64,000 nucleotides of DNA from positions 3,052,640 through 3,116,639 of the forward strand of contig OW818654.1 in the NCBI GenBank assembly GCA_942492935.1. The letters run 5' to 3'. Source of the stretch: an uncultured bacterium. Its GTDB lineage: Bacteria; Bacteroidota; Ignavibacteria; Kapaibacteriales; UBA2268. A program made the translations under genes and the position numbers. The notes beneath the pieces were generated by a model. It was given only the letters and a program-made list of their open reading frames with translations, was not told the origin of the DNA and ran no database searches. This document shows, piece by piece, positions 43,187-64,000 of this stretch; position 1 is the first letter of the stretch, and every line of letters starts with the position of its first letter.

Positions 43187-43329
43187 ATTTCACCGATTTG
43201 AATAATATATTTTAAAGTCAAATAAAGTGTAGTAACGTAAATTGTTTTTATTTATTTGCTAATTGAATTAGCAAGTTTAAATATGAAATTCTTAATATTT
43301 TTGCCTTTTAATACTAAGTTGCGTTCAAA

Positions 43330-43530
43330 GATTAAAGATATAAATCATTGAAAATCCCAACGGGATTAAATGTTTGTAACAATAACAAATAAAATATGTA
43401 AAGTCCTCCCTTTGGGGAGGATTTAGGTGGGGTTTTCAATTATTCAATCCCGATGGAATTGCTGGACTTACGGGCATTTTCTTTATTACAATCATGTAAT
43501 CCCTATCGGGATTTTCAAAGAATTTCTTTT
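43330..43530. repeat. Cluster of small aatccc-N4-gggatt hairpins plus a tcctccc-tttg-gggagga hairpin. Related in layout to the interior of the MITE at 57601-57931.
   Basis: aatcccaacgggatt, aatcccgatggaatt and aatccctatcgggatt. The shared context gaaaatccc....gggatta.(c)tgtttgtaa.aataa is also present at 57700. Confidence 0.6.
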
Positions 43531-43629
43531 TTTTTATTTTCTAATTGTTACAAATATGCATTTTTTTCATTCAAATAACGAAGCAATTTTAAAAATATCA
43601 ATTCAGCTGAGCAGTTACTTTTATAAATA

Positions 43630-46600
43630 TCAAATATATTCAATAGTTTTCTTTATTCTCCAAAGTAATTCAACCGCTTGGTCTCTATTTTCAATATATA
43701 CTTCAAGCAATAATTTTGTTTTTGTTTGTCTTAATTTTGCAATTTCAATTTCATTTATAAAATCAACAATAAGTGGGAATGCTTTCTCGTAAAACTCTTT
43801 ATTACTTTCATTTGGAAGTTCACATACTAATAAATTAGGTTTTAAAATTATTCTGGTAATACCTGTTTCTAATGAAGCAATACGTAATTTTACTGCAAAA
43901 ATCAAATCTTTGGCTTGTTTTGGCATTTTTCCAAATCTATCTTTTATTTCGGACAACAAAATTTCAAGTTCATCATTTGTCTTCACTTGATATAATTTCT
44001 TATAATACATAAATCTGTCTGTATTATTTTTGATATAATCACTTGGGAATAGTGCATCAGTATCAAGTTCGATTGAAACATCATCATTTTTAATAAACAG
44101 TGGCTTGTTCTCTTGTCCGTCTGCGAATACATCTGAAAATTCTTCTGATTTCAATTCTATAACAGCTTCTTCTAAAATTTTCTGATATAATTCAAATCCA
44201 ATATCAATAATAAATCCACTCTGTTCGGCACCGAGTAGATTTCCTGCTCCTCGTATTTCCATATCTTTCATGGCAAGTTTGAATCCGCTACCAAGGTCGA
44301 TAAATTCTTCTAATGCTTGTAATCTTTGAACTGCTTTTTGATTGAGCTTTTTATCTGGAGATACTATTAAATAGCAATATGCTTGTGTATTACTTCTTCC
44401 AACTCTGCCTCTCAGTTGATACAGTTCAGCCAAACCAAAATTATTTGCACGGTTTATCATCATAGTATTTGCATTTGGTATATCAATTCCTGACTCAATT
44501 ATTTTGGTGGATAGCAAAACATCAAATTTTCCAGCAGTGAATTTCTCCATAATTGTTTCAAGTGTGCTTGGTTTCATTTGTCCATGTGCAATTACAAACC
44601 TCAATGTTGGTAGCAATGTTTGAAGATTCATAGCGATTTTATCTAAATCATCAATTTTATCACTTACAAAAAATACCTGACCTCCCCTTTCGACTTCTTT
44701 GTTGATAGCATTCACAATTGTATCGTTATTCCATTCAATAATTTCAGTATAAACAGGTAATCTATTCTTTGGTGGTGTTTCGATTAAACTTAAATCTCTC
44801 GCTCCAAGCAAAGAAAAATTAAGTGTTCTTGGTATTGGAGTTGCCGTTAATGTTAATGTATCAACTGTTGAACGTAATTGTCTTAACTTCTCTTTAGCTC
44901 CGACACCAAATCTATGTTCTTCATCAATAATCAATAAACCCAAATTTTTAAATTCAACATCTTTGGATAGCAATCTATGTGTTCCAATCAAAATATCCAA
45001 CGAACCCTGCTTTAAATGAGAAAGTATTTCTGTTTGTTGAGCAGGAGTTCTAAATCTTGAAATTGCGTTTATAAGTACAGGATATTTGCTTAATCTATCT
45101 TTAAATGACATATAATGTTGTTGTGAAAGTATAGTTGTCGGAACAAGAACAGCAACTTGTTTCCCTGATTGAACTGCCTTAAATGCGGCTCTTATAGCAA
45201 CTTCTGTCTTCCCAAATCCAACATCACCACATACTAATCTATCCATAGGCGAAGAAGACTCCATATCTTTTTTTATTTCGTAAGTTGTACGAGATTGGTC
45301 GGGAGTATCTTCATAAGGAAAAGCGGCTTCAAATTCTTTTTGCCAAAGTGTATCTGCAGAATAAGCGAAACCTTTCAATGTCTTTCTTTGAGCATAAAGA
45401 GTAATTAATTCTCTTGCAATATCTTTAAGTTTCTTCTTTGTTTTTTCTTTCCTGCGACTCCAATCAGTAGTTCCAAGTTTGCTAAGAACTGGTGCTGAAT
45501 TTTCATTTGCCGAATATTTGGTAATCTTTTGAATATAATTTAAAGAAACATAAAGCAAATCGTTGCCAGCAAACAAAATTCTCACACAATCTTGCTGACT
45601 ACCTCCCATTGTTACCGTTTGAAAACCATCAAATTTGCCTATTCCTTTATCTTCATGAACAACATAATCACCAATTTTCAATTCTTTTAATTCATTAATT
45701 GTAATAGATGCAGCTTTTACACTTTTTTTAGAATCTCTCGAACGCCTATGCTCAAAAATTTGATGTTCAGTAAAATATGCAAAATTCAATTCATCTGAAA
45801 CAAATCCTGATGAAAGTGTTTCCTCTAAAAACTTAACTGATTTTAATAATGTCTGTTTATCTGCAATAACAATACTCGTTTCAGTAATTTCATTATTTTC
45901 AATTTCTTGTGAAGTTTCAATTATTTCTTTTAATCTGTTAGAATGAATTTTACCATCTGCTCCGAGATATAAACTATAATTTTGAAAGGCAAGTTTACTT
46001 ATTTCATAAATAAAACTTTTTACAGAAGCATTAAATACAGGTTGAGAAGCGGAATGAATAGAAATATCAGATTTGGTCAATGGATTAATTACTAATGATT
46101 TATATTCATCTAATTTTTCAATGAAATAATTATCTAATTCAAGTGTTTCGGGAGTATCAGTTATACAAATACAATTCGCATTTAAATAATCAAAAATATC
46201 AGATTCTAATTTATTTGCAGATGAATCAAATAAGTTGGCGATAAAATTCACATCTTTATGCTCACGAATACTGCGTTGAGATAACGGGTCGAATTCTCTG
46301 ATAGATTCAATTTCATCGCCCCAAAACTCAATTCTAAGAGGATTATCCCAACCAATCGGGAAAATATCCACAATACCACCACGAATTGCAATATCTCCCT
46401 GTGAAAAAACATATTCTCTTCTGTCAAACCCATTTAACATTAATTCAGTTGTAAATTGCTCGAAATTATAAACTTCGCCTATTTTTACTGTTTTATTATT
46501 GCTATTTAATGTTGCAGGTTGTGGCATTTCCATTTTGAATATATCTGGTGTTACAATAGCAATGCCATTATTATGATTCAAACTTTTACCAAGTCCATCT

Positions 46601-50989: not shown

Positions 50990-51829
50990 ATGTATATTAA
51001 ATTATTTTTTGCATTTGTTTTAAGTGCATTTTTAGTGTCCTGTGGTTCAGGAGATTCTCTTGGTGATAAAAATCTTAGCAAGCCCAAAGATTTGTTTGAT
51101 TCAGTTGCTTATGTTCAGGGCTTTATCAATGGTGCAAATATGAGGGTTGCAAAATTACGGGACACAATCAAAGTTGACCTCGACTATTATTTTAAAGGTA
51201 TTAGAGATGGTTTAGATTCTAACTATACTTTAGTTGAATACAAATATTTTGATACTGTTGATATGAGATTTCAACAAGAAATGGCAAAAAAAGAAGTTGC
51301 TCGACAAGAATTACAACAAGCTGAAATGAAAAAAAGAGGGGAAAACAATGCCGCTTTGGGACCTAAATTTCTTGAAGATAATAAATCAAAACCTGGCGTA
51401 ACCGTTACTCCAACAGGTTTGCAGTATAAAGTAATTACACAAGGTAAAGGCAAAAAGCCAACTCAAGACCAATTTATTAGATTCCATATTGTAACTAAAC
51501 TTGTAGATGGTACAGTGGTTGATGATACATATCAGAAAGGACAACCAATTGTTGCGCCAGTCGGCAAAGTAATTCCAGGTTGGGTAGAAGCATTTTTATT
51601 GATGAACGTAGGAAGTAAATATGAAGTTGTACTACCACCAAGTATCGCATTTGGTGAAAATGGTGCTGGTTCAATGATTCCTCCAAATGCAGTATTGCAA
51701 AGTACTATTGAATTACTTGATATAGTTGATGAAGCTACATTTAGAGAAGAAATGCAAAAATTGATGCAACAACAGCAACAACAAAATATGCCTCCAGGTG
51801 CTGGAAGACCAAGACCACAAGGTAATTAA
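50990..51829 (+). CDS. FKBP-type peptidyl-prolyl cis-trans isomerase (FkpA-like lipoprotein)
   Basis: Lipobox FLVSCGSG. FKBP domain GLQYKVITQGKG...VIPGWVEAFLLMNVGSKYEVVLPPSIAFGENG. Confidence 0.85.
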   Translation: MYIKLFFAFVLSAFLVSCGSGDSLGDKNLSKPKDLFDSVAYVQGFINGANMRVAKLRDTIKVDLDYYFKGIRDGLDSNYTLVEYKYFDTVDMRFQQEMAKKEVARQELQQAEMKKRGENNAALGPKFLEDNKSKPGVTVTPTGLQYKVITQGKGKKPTQDQFIRFHIVTKLVDGTVVDDTYQKGQPIVAPVGKVIPGWVEAFLLMNVGSKYEVVLPPSIAFGENGAGSMIPPNAVLQSTIELLDIVDEATFREEMQKLMQQQQQQNMPPGAGRPRPQGN

Positions 51830-51844
51830 TTCTGACAATTACAA

Positions 51845-51878
51845 ACAATCCTTGCTTGATGAAGCAAGGATTGTTTTG
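51845..51878 (+). terminator. Terminator of the FKBP gene
   Basis: caatccttgcttg-atg-aagcaaggattg followed by ttttg. Confidence 0.6.
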
Positions 51879-52809: not shown

Positions 52810-52902
<93 letters not shown>

Positions 52903-56926: not shown

Positions 56927-57385
56927 TTACCATAAATTTTCGTTTAAAAAATCTTTTAATATAATTGCAGCGGCAACTTTATCAATATTGCCTTTTTCAC
57001 GTCTTGCTTTTTTCTTAGTTCCATTAATCAACATAGTATCCATTGCATTAATTGAACTCATTGATTCATCTTGTCTAAAGATAATGAATTTATTATCAGC
57101 ATTCAAAATACTTATAAACTCAGTAATACTTTCTGTAATTTTACTTTCAATATTACCTTTTCTAATTGGATTACCTACAACTATTGCATTTACTCTTTCT
57201 TTATTTAATACATCAAAACATTGTTCCCAAAACGTAGATTGAGTATAATCAAGAACTGCTTTTGGAGAAATACTAATATGTAATTCATCACATACAGCTA
57301 TTCCTACTCTTTTTAATCCAAAATCAATCCCAGCTATTCTGCAATTTGCTAATTGTGTTCTAATATCTTGGTTCATAGTATTCAA
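56927..57385 (-). CDS. ruvX: Putative pre-16S rRNA nuclease / Holliday-junction-resolvase-like YqgF (RuvX)
   Basis: IAGIDFGLKRVGIAVCD and NAIVVGNP motifs of the YqgF/RuvX family. The real start is probably an internal Met. Confidence 0.75.
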   Translation of the reverse strand: MNTMNQDIRTQLANCRIAGIDFGLKRVGIAVCDELHISISPKAVLDYTQSTFWEQCFDVLNKERVNAIVVGNPIRKGNIESKITESITEFISILNADNKFIIFRQDESMSSINAMDTMLINGTKKKARREKGNIDKVAAAIILKDFLNENLW

Positions 57386-57600
57386 TAATTCAAAAAAAGT
57401 AATTCAAAATCTATCAAGCTAAACACTTTAATATAGACGTTATTTAAATTCTGAAATTTTGTTTTGCTATCAGTTTAATAAAAAATCATAATTCCTAAGA
57501 TATAACTATCAACAGTTTCAATTTAATCTAAATTTATATGTGAATTTACTCTTTGAATAATTATTGATATCAGATCGCTATCATAAGTGATTAATAATAA

Positions 57601-57931
57601 TGTAACTACTCACCCGGTTTATAATTTTAATTGTGCTTTGTAATTTGAATGAAAATTTAAGTATATTTGGAACAAGTGGAAAATTAATAATAAAAAAGAA
57701 ATTCCTTGAAAATCCCGTTAGGGATTACCTGTTTGTAATAAAGAAATTTCCCCTAAGTCCAACAATCCCAGCGGGATTGAATAGTTCAAATACATATTCA
57801 ACACCTACGGCGTTGTTGGAAGTCGAGGGAACTTCATCAGTTACAAACATTAATTCCCGATGGGAATTTCAAGGAATTTTTATAAATAAAACAAGAATTC
57901 AATATTATTTTAATACGGGTGAGTAGTTACA
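57601..57931. mobile_element. 331-bp non-autonomous MITE-like element. 16-bp perfect terminal inverted repeats tgtaactactcacccg / cgggtgagtagttaca, flanked by a 9-bp direct repeat taataataa (putative target-site duplication).
   Basis: Left TIR 57601-57616, right TIR 57916-57931. taataataa at 57592-57600 and again at 57932-57940. The interior carries three (a)atccc-N4-gggatt hairpins. The embedded 97-aa ORF is probably non-coding. Confidence 0.7.
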
Positions 57932-58373
57932 TAATAATAAATTCTATGAAATTCCCAGGGATTATATTTTTGAAATAAAATTAGTTAAGAATATGTAAAT
58001 TTACTCTTGCCATTGTATTATTGAATTAGAGTATCTAAATACCTTGCAAACCACTAAGTCAAAGTATAGGGAGTTCAGAACTCTGTTATTAGTTATCATC
58101 TCCCAAAAAAAATATTTAATGATAAAAAATTATATAATTCATGTGAATAACTTTTAAATTGACTTATATTTTTTTTTGTTATAAATATGAAATAAGTGAT
58201 GTGAATAAATTATTTGAAACATTAATAAAAAATATTTTAAAAAAAAATAAAAAAATGTTTAAAAATCGTTTGTTTGTTTAAAAAAATATTTGTAATTTTG
58301 AAATGAGATAAGATTAAATAGAGAAATCAAAGAAGTTCTAAAGAGTACATAGTAAAATAGAAAGACGGTGTGA

Positions 58374-58443
58374 AAACTCTTAACTCTTAACTCTTAACTC
58401 TTAACTCTTAACTCTTAACTCTTAACTCTTAACTCTTAACTCT
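58374..58443. repeat. Heptanucleotide microsatellite (taactct) x ~9, about 250 bp upstream of the BNR/T9SS gene
   Basis: aaactct then taactct x 8, read directly. Confidence 0.9.
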
Positions 58444-58690
58444 TTTACTAATTATATCAGAGGAGTAAAAAATATATGATTGCGTTATAAAAGCCCAAGA
58501 CTCGTGATCTCAGGCTTATTGGATCACGTCATTACAATGTTGGCTGTTTAAAACCATCAATTGCAATTTTGTAGCCTTAAGCGACTGCAAAATTAATCAA
58601 ATAAATGGTTTTAAACAAGATATGTTTTTTTAGCATTTTTTATTAATTTATTTTCAAACTCATTTTATTAATATTTATTCAGGTGCAATT

Positions 58691-60076
58691 ATGAAGATAA
58701 TTGTAAATTTAATAGTATTTCTATTTTTCGGAATTGCAATATACTCTCAAGAACCTGGCTGGAAATTTAGTTATGATACACAGATTCCTAAAATTAATTT
58801 AAGTATATATTTTCAGGGATTGAGTTGTTATGATGAATTAAATTGTATTTGTTCTTCAGCTCAAAGCAAAGTTGGAGCAAGAATTTTCAAAACAACAAAT
58901 GGCGGAATAAGTTGGGAAGAATTATATACCGATACTTCAGATACAAGAACCGAACCTTGGTATGTACCAAGATATATAGCTGGCTATGTTAAATATTATG
59001 AAGATGGAACTATAATTGTACTTACTCGAAATAGTACCCAAAAGAGTATAGTTTTAAAATCTGTTGACTATGGAAAAAGTTGGAAACAATATAAAATTGC
59101 TGATGCATTCGACCAAGATTATGAGTTAATTTATGATAGAAATTTGATTTATGTTGTAAGTATGAATGGAACTCAAAATATGGAGATAGCATATTATTCC
59201 AAAGATGGTGGTGAGTCTTGGAAAATATTTCCTGTTCCGGATTCAATTAAAGATTTATATGGATTATATAGAGTTGATTTGTTTAATAAAAATACATTGA
59301 TATTTACAAAAGGCATTACTGATACAACAATCAACGACCATATTAATTTCAATTTACTATATACATGCGATTTAGATGGTAATAATTGGAAACAGATGTT
59401 AATACCTAAGCATATAAATAGATTCAAGGTAATAAATGATAATATTTTATTCGGATATGGATATAATTGGAATGATGGTAATATTGATAGTGGTTATATA
59501 TATAAATCTTATGATGGTGGAAAAAATTGGGAATTAAAATTCAAGACTAATTGGATACATACATTTATTCAAAATCTTGAATTCTTTGGAGATAGTTTAG
59601 GTTATGCAATCGGAAGAAAATCTCTTTTTATCAAAACTACAGACCAAGGTGAAACTTGGTTTTATCCCAAAAAGGACTTATATTATCAAGATACGACTTA
59701 TTATACTGCAAATTTGCAAATTCCATCTGAAAATGTGGTATATTACACAGGTTCATTAACAAAAAAAATAGTAAAGTATGAAAAAATTTCAGGATCAGTA
59801 TCAGAGCCATCAATAAAGAATTTCAATCTCTATCCTAATCCATTATATTCAGCTGATGAAGTCAATTTAGAATTTTATGCAATAAAATCAGGTGATTGCA
59901 AAATTTATTTAACCGACACAGGTTCAAGGCAATTAGCAGAATTTTATACAGGTTTTGTTGAAGAAGGAATATTGAAAATGAAATTTCAATTACCAAAATT
60001 AAGTTCAGGTGCTTATTGGCTTGTAATAGAAATGAATGGATATAATCATATCAAATTATTGAATATTGTAAATTAG
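58691..60076 (+). CDS. Secreted BNR/Asp-box repeat beta-propeller protein with a T9SS C-terminal sorting domain
   Basis: Asp-boxes TTNGGISWE, SVDYGKSWK, SKDGGESWK, SYDGGKNWE, TTDQGETWF. C-terminus FNLYPNPLYSADEVNLEFYAIKSGDCKIYLTDTGSRQLAEFYTGF...GAYWLVIEM is a T9SS CTD. Confidence 0.75.
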   Translation: MKIIVNLIVFLFFGIAIYSQEPGWKFSYDTQIPKINLSIYFQGLSCYDELNCICSSAQSKVGARIFKTTNGGISWEELYTDTSDTRTEPWYVPRYIAGYVKYYEDGTIIVLTRNSTQKSIVLKSVDYGKSWKQYKIADAFDQDYELIYDRNLIYVVSMNGTQNMEIAYYSKDGGESWKIFPVPDSIKDLYGLYRVDLFNKNTLIFTKGITDTTINDHINFNLLYTCDLDGNNWKQMLIPKHINRFKVINDNILFGYGYNWNDGNIDSGYIYKSYDGGKNWELKFKTNWIHTFIQNLEFFGDSLGYAIGRKSLFIKTTDQGETWFYPKKDLYYQDTTYYTANLQIPSENVVYYTGSLTKKIVKYEKISGSVSEPSIKNFNLYPNPLYSADEVNLEFYAIKSGDCKIYLTDTGSRQLAEFYTGFVEEGILKMKFQLPKLSSGAYWLVIEMNGYNHIKLLNIVN

Positions 60077-62637: not shown

Positions 62638-64000
62638 TTAAATTCCAAGAAAGATTTCAGAAAAATATTTTGTATAATCAAATAATGAATATTTTATTTG
62701 ATAAAACCCAAGAGGAACTACAATAAACAACAAAAAGAAAATACCACCAATAATACAAACCCTTGAAAACGGTACATCAAAAACCACACCTGAGGAACGG
62801 AAAATTCTTGCTATTGTCCAAATCAATATACCAAGATAAAGCACCAAAAACAGCCAAATAGTAATAGGTGATAAGACCAGAATTCGTATCAAAATAATTG
62901 AGATAGGTAATAAAATTAGAATCGGAACCCCAGACCAAACAGATAAAACCAAACTATCAGCATAGTAAATTCTTGCTCTTGACATGAAGGCGAAAGAGTT
63001 TATAATAAAAGCCACAAACATAGCAAATGCAAAGCTAATCAAAGCAATTATAAGTGCTGATAATTCTGGCATCCAGATAATTCTGAATAATAATTCTTGT
63101 AATGAATTAAGTGGAGTACCAAGCATAAAAATATATTGTGCAATGAAACTCGAACGATAATAGTATAAAATAGATGCAAGATATAGTCCTATTGTAAATG
63201 CAGTTATTGCTCCGAGAAATATTGTTTGAAAGGACGACATAATTCTTTGGTCTCTAATGTCAGCATAGAAATTATAAGGTCTTAAAACAGAACGAAACAT
63301 ATATTCTCTGAATCTTTTGAATCTGTTTATAAGTAATATAACTGCTATACCAAGTGCAAAACCACTTAAAATAAATGAAAATGGAGTCTTTTCGCTATAA
63401 TTTCCAGCATTCAATAAGGGTTCCTTTTCACCATTAAACAATGCTTGAACAGTTGAATAAGATAGTCGCTGTCTGCGTTTCCTATCCATTAAGCCAGAAG
63501 TTGCAAGATATATATCTTGATTGTCAGTAATTAAAATGGGATTGTTTAGATTGTAATCATTGAAAGTATTTATTATACTTCCACAGCCATCTAAGTCATT
63601 AACAATTTTATAAATATTTGAAATAATATATGCTTGAAATTCAATAGATAGAGGGTCGGCATATCCATTATGATTCTTCGGTTGAATTGTAGCACCATAA
63701 GACATAAATAATGGTTTTTCATTAATTAAACTTTTTACTCTTGAAAATTCTTCTTCGATTTGCTTCATATCAACTTTTTGACGAATATTGCGTAAACCAA
63801 TAAAATCGAAATTCTTCAAGTCAACTTTATCAACTCCAAATGGAATTATTTTGTATAATAATTTATCTGACTGATTCTTGAATAAATTAGTCAATAAATC
63901 AAAAAACTTTGAAGATTCAACAGTTCCTTCAATTATACCATCTGATATTCCATAAGCAAAAACTGAAGGATGATTTTCGTAATTCAAAATTATTTGCCTT
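62638..64000 (-). CDS. Integral membrane protein with an N-terminal soluble domain (~200 aa) and about 8 TM helices. Function unknown. The start is TTG at 63987 or beyond the window.
   Basis: The ORF stays open to the window edge in the same frame (…RQIILNYENHPSVF). Hydrophobic C-terminal half. Confidence 0.45.
   Translation of the reverse strand, partial: RQIILNYENHPSVFAYGISDGIIEGTVESSKFFDLLTNLFKNQSDKLLYKIIPFGVDKVDLKNFDFIGLRNIRQKVDMKQIEEEFSRVKSLINEKPLFMSYGATIQPKNHNGYADPLSIEFQAYIISNIYKIVNDLDGCGSIINTFNDYNLNNPILITDNQDIYLATSGLMDRKRRQRLSYSTVQALFNGEKEPLLNAGNYSEKTPFSFILSGFALGIAVILLINRFKRFREYMFRSVLRPYNFYADIRDQRIMSSFQTIFLGAITAFTIGLYLASILYYYRSSFIAQYIFMLGTPLNSLQELLFRIIWMPELSALIIALISFAFAMFVAFIINSFAFMSRARIYYADSLVLSVWSGVPILILLPISIILIRILVLSPITIWLFLVLYLGILIWTIARIFRSSGVVFDVPFSRVCIIGGIFFLLFIVVPLGFYQIKYSLFDYTKYFSEIFLGI

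Follow-up and report, generated by a model that had tools for sequence, protein, structure and literature searches.

Insertion sequences (ISs) of the IS66 family have inverted repeats that begin with GTAA, are flanked by 8-bp direct repeats and are present in Bacteroidetes/Chlorobi (PMC11946415). ISDge4 of Deinococcus geothermalis is a single-ORF member of this family that belongs to the ISBst12 group; its terminal inverted repeats (TIRs) read GTGACTACTCAGCA and GTAACTGCTCAGCA, and it is flanked by an 8-bp direct repeat, the duplication CCTCGATG (PMC12898284). Bacterial MITEs such as Correia/CREE, RUP, MITEPsy and Nezha are short, non-coding, multi-copy and intergenic, combine TIRs with a target-site duplication (TSD), fold into a long hairpin and are presumed to be mobilised in trans. 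In the searchable literature, we found no description of a MITE derived from an IS66 or ISBst12 element and nothing relevant on MITEs in Ignavibacteria. The element analysed here, copy A, shares all of these features with the described bacterial MITEs, including the presumed mobilisation in trans, but differs from them in its parent family and in having an interior that is itself a repeat unit, with tandem arrays and alternative central hairpins. We conclude that copy A is very probably a non-autonomous MITE with TIRs of the ISBst12-group IS66-family type that was moved in trans with an 8-bp TSD. It is an ordinary kind of mobile element, found in a little-studied bacterial lineage and equipped with an unusually hairpin-rich interior.

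Copy A spans positions 57602–57930 on the plus strand of the 64,000-nucleotide stretch of DNA that we analysed (the window), which comes from a genome with a G+C content of 29%. It is 329 bp long and non-coding, and it is located in the 1.3-kb intergenic region that separates two divergent genes, a ruvX-like gene (56927–57385, minus strand) and a gene (58691–60076, plus strand) for a BNR-repeat protein with a type-IX secretion (T9SS) tail. The left TIR, GTAACTACTCACCCG (57602–57616, plus strand), agrees with the family consensus at 14 of 15 positions, and its first 11 bases are those of the TIR of an IS66-family IS from B. thuringiensis. The right TIR is the same 15-bp sequence, GTAACTACTCACCCG, on the minus strand (57916–57930). 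An 8-bp TSD, ATAATAAT, adjoins the element on the left (57594–57601) and on the right (57931–57938). The first-pass annotation had described these ends as a 16-bp perfect inverted repeat, with tgtaactactcacccg at 57601–57616 and its exact reverse complement at 57916–57931, flanked by taataataa at 57592–57600 and 57932–57940, and the sequence contains both repeats exactly as described. The 16-mer tgtaactactcacccg has two sites in the whole window, which are the two element ends, compared with 0.07 matches expected when up to three mismatches are allowed.

Two other repeats occupy the same intergenic region. A perfect tandem array of ten AACTCTT heptamers (58375–58444) is located about 250 nt upstream of the BNR/T9SS-tail gene and looks like a candidate slipped-strand (phase-variation) tract in a promoter region. 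An 18-nt direct repeat, ATATGT(G/A)AATTTACTCTT, is found at 57536–57553 and 57991–58008, 48 and 60 nt from the MITE ends; its two copies are 94% identical, weaker similarity runs on for about 35 nt, and they could represent regulatory boxes or an old duplication. The only RNA gene that Rfam and ARAGORN found in the window is a tRNA-Ser (anticodon GCT) at 52810–52902.

The absence of a transposase from the interior, already part of the first reading, holds. A 97-aa ORF runs across copy A (57633–57926, plus strand), but it has no Pfam match, stop codons break its frame in copy B (described below), and its only ‘homologs’ are ORFs over other copies. Spurious as it is, this ORF served as a protein probe for further members of the family. 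The protein P0106, which marks a copy C, is 96% identical to it and has the same ‘NTGE*’ end reading through the right TIR, and a profile search added P0113 and P0107, which are ORFs over further copies. Since one 4,494,247-bp contig encodes all three as well as the GWxTD protein of the window (P0001), the source genome contains at least five loci of the family. Judging by the homologs of this GWxTD protein, the organism belongs with the Kapabacteria-like bacteria. An exhaustive representative search returned more ORFs over copies (P0108–P0111 and later P0114). Using BLAST and alignment, we identified full-length copies of 325–331 bp, 71–77% identical to copy A, at loci L009, L010, L015 and L012 (the last equal to L013 and L014). 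One further copy (L011; 74% identity) aligns to copy A over 43–353 only and has a decayed right TIR. The search for additional copies that had been proposed thus yielded at least five loci in the source genome and five further contexts in metagenome contigs, where the neighbouring genes are unrelated and include an ABC transporter, a tRNA synthetase and a radical-SAM enzyme, among others.

An older, decayed copy (copy B) is found on the minus strand of the window at 43300–43618, with the right boundary being approximate. It is 80% identical to copy A over 193 bp and 85% identical over 39 bp, it starts 11 nt past the stop codon of mfd (43630–43632), and it comprises the left TIR, the left arm and an inner unit with a different central hairpin. 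The first-pass annotation had noted a block at 43330–43530 as a second occurrence that lacks TIRs. The second occurrence stands, but the block is part of copy B, which has kept its left TIR (GTAACTGCTCAGCTG, 43604–43618, minus strand; a 13/14 match to the published ISDge4 TIR GTAACTGCTCAGCA) and is missing only the right one. We inspected both copy B and a related element at locus L003, and found a right TIR or outer inverted repeat in neither. The L003 element (100–420; MAG JANJUO010000114.1, GTDB ‘bacterium’) is located downstream of gpmA in a different organism and consists of a left arm, an inverted module pair and two cctcccc/gggagg hairpins; one hairpin, gtcctccc-ttcg-gggaggatttaggagggg, matches the centre of copy B almost exactly.

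Other sequence collections were also searched. A blastn search of the element against plasmid and phage collections gave no match. Scanning genome contigs with the module pattern AAAATCCCN{3,4}GGGATTANNTGNTTGTAA returned three loci and scanning metagenome contigs with AATCCCN{3,4}GGGATTANNTGNTTGTAA returned four; no viral contig matched AAAATCCCN{3,4}GGGATTANNTGNTTGTAA or a left-arm pattern. With the exception of L003, the loci found by pattern scans share the module and not the element, and none of them is from the source genome.

Alignment of the copies shows that their similarity stops abruptly at the GT/AC termini, beyond which the flanks are unrelated. The terminal sequence GTRACTACTCAGC is found at both ends of copy A and of the copies at L009, L010 and L015, is degenerate in L012 and L011, and is present only on the left in copy B and L003. 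The adjoining left subterminal arm (57617–57698 in copy A, plus strand) is conserved in copy B, L003 and L009–L015. The MITE reading of the first-pass annotation is therefore borne out by a family that is multi-copy and non-coding, has sharp boundaries and conserved termini, and includes two independent copies with perfect TSDs.

Its exact dimensions had to be revised. For every full-length copy, we took the conserved termini as anchors and measured the exact repeats beside them. With TGT…ACA boundaries, the repeats are 9 bp in copy A, 6 bp in L015 and 4, 2 and 2 bp in the others, which is inconsistent. Moving the boundaries one base inward, to GT…AC, gives perfect 8-bp repeats in copy A (ATAATAAT) and in L015 (ATTTTTAT), which are from different organisms. 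The 331-bp element with 16-bp TIRs therefore becomes a 329-bp element with 15-bp TIRs starting from GT, and its 9-bp TSD becomes an 8-bp one; a 9-bp TSD with TGT…ACA ends fits copy A only. Because the flank of copy A is a (TAA)n sequence, taataataa can be read either as 9 bp (TGT…ACA) or as the 8-bp ATAATAAT (GT…AC), and we prefer the latter because it is favoured by the other copies and by the parent IS family. It is the (TAA)n periodicity of the target that makes the repeat of copy A look 9 bp long. The 8-bp duplication is present at GT/AC boundaries in two of the five full-length copies and absent in L009, L010 and L012. The TIRs of L012 are degenerate and that copy is presumably old, while the missing duplications in L009 and L010 would need recombination between copies or decay of the flanks.

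The first-pass annotation had itself raised the concern that the flanking repeat might be simple AT-rich background. The word taataataa is of low complexity and taken alone occurs at background level (seven copies in the window against 6.2 expected). We moved a mock element of 331 bp across the entire window and recorded, at 63,620 positions, how long a direct repeat flanked it. A repeat of at least 9 bp at this spacing was found at a single position, the site of copy A, which corresponds to 1 in 879 among AT-only flanks; the chance per site of a repeat of at least 8 bp is 1.3e-4, or about 1.1e-3 with AT-only flanks. The repeat is thus unlikely to be mere AT-rich background, even if the (TAA)n flank of copy A, taken alone, may also fit an insertion into a longer TAA tract without duplication. 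We also looked for an empty site in the only close relative (L008; 76% nucleotide identity in ruvX–GWxTD). The element is absent upstream of its ruvX gene, and since this upstream region is not alignable, a single ATAATAAT was not located.

The ends of the family point to its parent. The consensus of the MITE TIRs, GTAACTACTCAGCCG, differs very little from the TIRs of ISs that have a single ORF, belong to the ISBst12 group of the IS66 family and make 8-bp duplications. The TIRs of ISDge4 are identical at 13 of 14 positions to those of L015 and L010 (GTGACTACTCAGCT) and of copy B (GTAACTGCTCAGCT). On plasmid pHTA426 of G. kaustophilus, an IS66-like element (L016, 14107–15741) encodes a 485-aa ORF with DDE_Tnp_IS66 (E=1.9e-64) and zf-IS66 domains; its TIRs are GTATCTATTCAGCCC and GTAACTATTCAGCCC, that is, GTA(T/A)CTATTCAGCCC, and its 8-bp TSD is GACGAGTT. 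The MITE matches the right TIR of this IS at 13 of 15 positions and the left TIR at 12 of 15. An IS on pLM4 of B. thuringiensis (L017, 426–2055), retrieved via tblastn, has GTAACTACTCAGCTT at both ends, which equals the MITE consensus over the first 13 bases (13/15 identity overall). ISAva2, in turn, has the TIR GTAAGGATTCAGGT and the 8-bp TSD GAATCCAG. What the MITE shares with ISBst12-group ISs are the GTAA…TTAC ends and the 8-bp TSD, whereas it differs in size and content, having 329 bp and no transposase compared with about 1.5–1.65 kb and one DDE_Tnp_IS66 ORF in the ISs. Beyond the TIRs, the MITE interior has no detectable similarity to the compared IS ends, and those ISs come from hosts of other phyla. 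As the TIRs match and the TSD is 8 bp long, we assign the parent type to a single-ORF IS66-family (ISBst12-group) DDE transposase. The ‘TGT’ ends of the IS481, IS3 and Tn7 types had been considered and were dropped once the GTAA/8-bp reading emerged.

In the proposed movement, both 15-bp TIRs (GTAACTACTCA…) would be bound by a DDE transposase of the ISBst12 type that is encoded at another place in the genome. This enzyme would join the element ends to a target whose two strands are cut 8 bp apart, and repair of the stagger would leave the flanking ATAATAAT duplication. We infer both the chemistry of this move and the presence of a cognate IS66/ISBst12 transposase in the source genome. A tblastn search with six IS66 transposases gave no match in the window or in any fetched locus, and no autonomous IS66/ISBst12 element was seen there. 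The case for a partner in the source genome is strengthened by copy C (P0106), the near identity of which suggests recent activity. The hairpin-rich interior is probably cargo or structural filler that the transposition model does not need. The two TIRs change in concert, with A>G at position 3 in L015 and L010 and G>C at position 12 in copy A; such concerted changes would also be given by a hairpin-templated mechanism.

Copy A is built as a nested palindrome: the TIRs pair with each other, two inverted modules are connected by a helix of about 40 bp, and two small hairpins are placed between these modules. The inner palindromic unit (57699–57879) is 70% self-complementary when matched to itself, and its consensus fold contains compensatory pairs. 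The two inverted modules, gaaaatccc-N3-4-gggatta-NN-tgtttgtaa, are located at 57708–57738 and 57841–57872 and enclose the two small hairpins. The first reading had listed three aatccc-N4-gggatt hairpins, of which one is literally present, aatccc-gtta-gggatt in the left module (57711–57726, plus strand); the rest deviate from it in having a 3-nt loop or a different stem. These are caatccc-agc-gggattg (57763–57779, plus strand), the loop-closing C-G pair of which is replaced by A-T in L010 and L009 (columns 172/176); the central hairpin caacacc-tac-ggcgttg (57799–57815, plus strand), conserved in copy A, L009–L012 and L015; and aattccc-gat-gggaatt in the right inverted module (57852–57868, plus strand). 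Copy B and L003 have cctcccc-aaa-gggagg in place of the central hairpin. Folded as single-stranded DNA, copy A reaches −56.9 kcal/mol (z = −8.4). Of the 64 predicted pairs, 7 show compensatory double changes across six copies, including two TIR pairs, in which A/T is replaced by G/C at position 3 in L015 and L010, and G/C by C/G at position 12 in copy A.

The inner unit and its modules also occur by themselves. P0107 (146 aa) of the source genome translates DNA in which the inner unit is repeated in tandem at least 2.3 times, with a period of 65 aa (195 nt) and with neither outer arms nor TIRs. The bare module is found in hairpin-rich intergenic DNA of Saprospiraceae, Bacteroidales and metagenome contigs (L001, L002 and L005–L007). 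In a Bacteroidales MAG (L002, 4300–4947; JAFGME010000266.1), two inverted hairpin-TTACCTGTTTGTAA modules directly precede a Y1_Tnp gene; its IS200-like product has 157 aa (E=1.5e-23), and the gene has inserted into a CRISPR-Cas operon, between a cas7-like and a cas5-like gene. The interior thus resembles a REP/BIME-like unit that can be separated from the TIRs, and this is the one mildly unusual aspect of the element. It is conceivable, if on balance unlikely, that the inner unit of about 180–195 nt is an independent, undescribed REP/BIME-like family captured between IS66-type TIRs, the result being a chimeric MITE through which a structured repeat of host type spreads. Such a family would have its own amplification, either of the Y1/RAYT type or hairpin-templated, would form tandem arrays, would occur in Kapabacteria and the wider Bacteroidota, and would have interchangeable central hairpins enclosed by two inverted [hairpin-TTA-NN-TGTTTGTAA] modules.

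Several observations concern modules and tails of this kind outside the element. Immediately outside the right duplication of copy A, at 57945–57980, there is a solo degenerate module, gaaattccc-a-gggattatatttttgaaataaa, that resembles the inner left module (83%) and could pair with 57861–57879 (89% complementary); copy A may have landed next to this older module. At 51838–51878, just after a gene ending at 51829, a different hairpin (atccttgctt-gat-gaagcaaggat) is flanked by ttacaaaca and tgttttga, so that its minus strand reads as a hairpin followed by TGTTTGTAA. This hairpin indicates that the TGTTTGTAA tail accompanies other hairpins too, and the tail may be a terminator-like or REP-like tag. 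A role for TGTTTGTAA as a promoter was considered and rejected, because a Bacteroidetes −7 motif is not consistently present at the appropriate distance. Dense arrays of short GC-rich hairpins (tgcgaccccggctggggtcg, gatgcctccggcatc and aaaccctgtaggggttt) together with the aatccc/gggatt-TGTTTGTAA module were seen at L006 (1270–1560) and L005 (11450–12200), which suggests mixed REP-like clusters in Bacteroidota.

These likenesses raise the question of whether the whole of copy A, rather than its inner unit, could be a REPIN/BIME-like element moved as single-stranded DNA by an IS200-like Y1 (RAYT/TnpA-REP) enzyme, with the modules as recognition sites and the TIRs as the outermost stem. The element as a whole is a nested palindrome, its arms carry concerted substitutions, and the motif aatccc-N3-4-gggatta-NN-tgtttgtaa recurs in the intergenic hairpin clusters of other Bacteroidota listed above. 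As in the RAYT-associated REP, BIME and REPIN repeats, the inner unit is an inverted module doublet that forms a longer hairpin and can be arrayed in tandem without outer arms, as P0107 illustrates for a BIME-like cluster, and a related module pair adjoins a Y1_Tnp gene in the one Bacteroidales MAG. In contrast to those repeats, copy A has outer ends of the DDE type with target duplications: the termini are those of IS66/ISBst12, and the 8-bp duplications of two copies are not a Y1 product. The canonical 5′ GT[AG]G tag is also absent, the modules carrying …gggatta-NN-tgtttgtaa and neither GTAG nor GTGG. Furthermore, the L002 gene belongs to Y1 subclass 1.2 (Y---Q--HH), which Quentin et al. described as generally lacking associated end structures (PMC6006769). 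A Pfam search of eight window ORFs (six of 135–197 aa and the two genes flanking copy A) found no Y1_Tnp or RAYT domain, and the Y1 link consists of one locus. We consider movement of copy A by a Y1 enzyme to be improbable, and a DDE-moved MITE to be the better account of its ends.

The stable fold could alternatively reflect a host structured RNA or regulatory DNA, such as a bidirectional terminator/attenuator cluster or a small RNA gene, that is bracketed by inverted repeats by chance. Beyond the fold itself, three terminator-like sites (a hairpin plus a T-run) are found inside the element compared with 0.1 expected, compensatory changes preserve the hairpins, and both the mfd-proximal copy B and the L003 copy, downstream of gpmA, follow genes. 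However, Rfam provided no family at gathering or relaxed thresholds: nothing reached the gathering score, and the relaxed search gave only a chance snoRNA match (E=1.5) outside the element. The copies occur in unrelated contexts and orientations, including the divergent promoter region that contains copy A, and the element is missing from the orthologous ruvX upstream region of the relative L008. Its sharp TIR boundaries and duplications indicate insertion, in which case any terminator or promoter effect would be a side-effect. A host RNA or regulatory element is accordingly very improbable as the origin of copy A. The last alternative, that the inverted repeat arose by chance in AT-rich intergenic DNA beside low-complexity sequence, or else that the ORF is a real small protein gene, might draw on the background frequency of taataataa, the low G+C content and the ORF that spans the element, but it is refuted by the 16-mer that lies far above chance, by a flank repeat that is unique at this spacing, by homologous copies with sharp boundaries across genomes, and by an ORF that has no domain and contains stops in copy B.

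Recognizing copy A as a MITE with ISBst12-type ends places an anonymous repeat from a Kapabacteria-like genome, which is low in G+C and poorly studied, in a specific transposase family. It leads to the prediction that the source genome contains an active or recently active ISBst12-type IS66 transposase (DDE_Tnp_IS66) with GTRACTRCTCAGC-type TIRs. It also provides a worked example of an IS66-family MITE, a type of element that is apparently undescribed in the searchable literature. Such elements seed spurious ORF calls, as several database ‘proteins’, P0106, P0113 and P0107 among them, are translations of this MITE repeat. The biology is otherwise standard for MITEs, which can bring hairpins, terminator-like sites and promoters next to genes.
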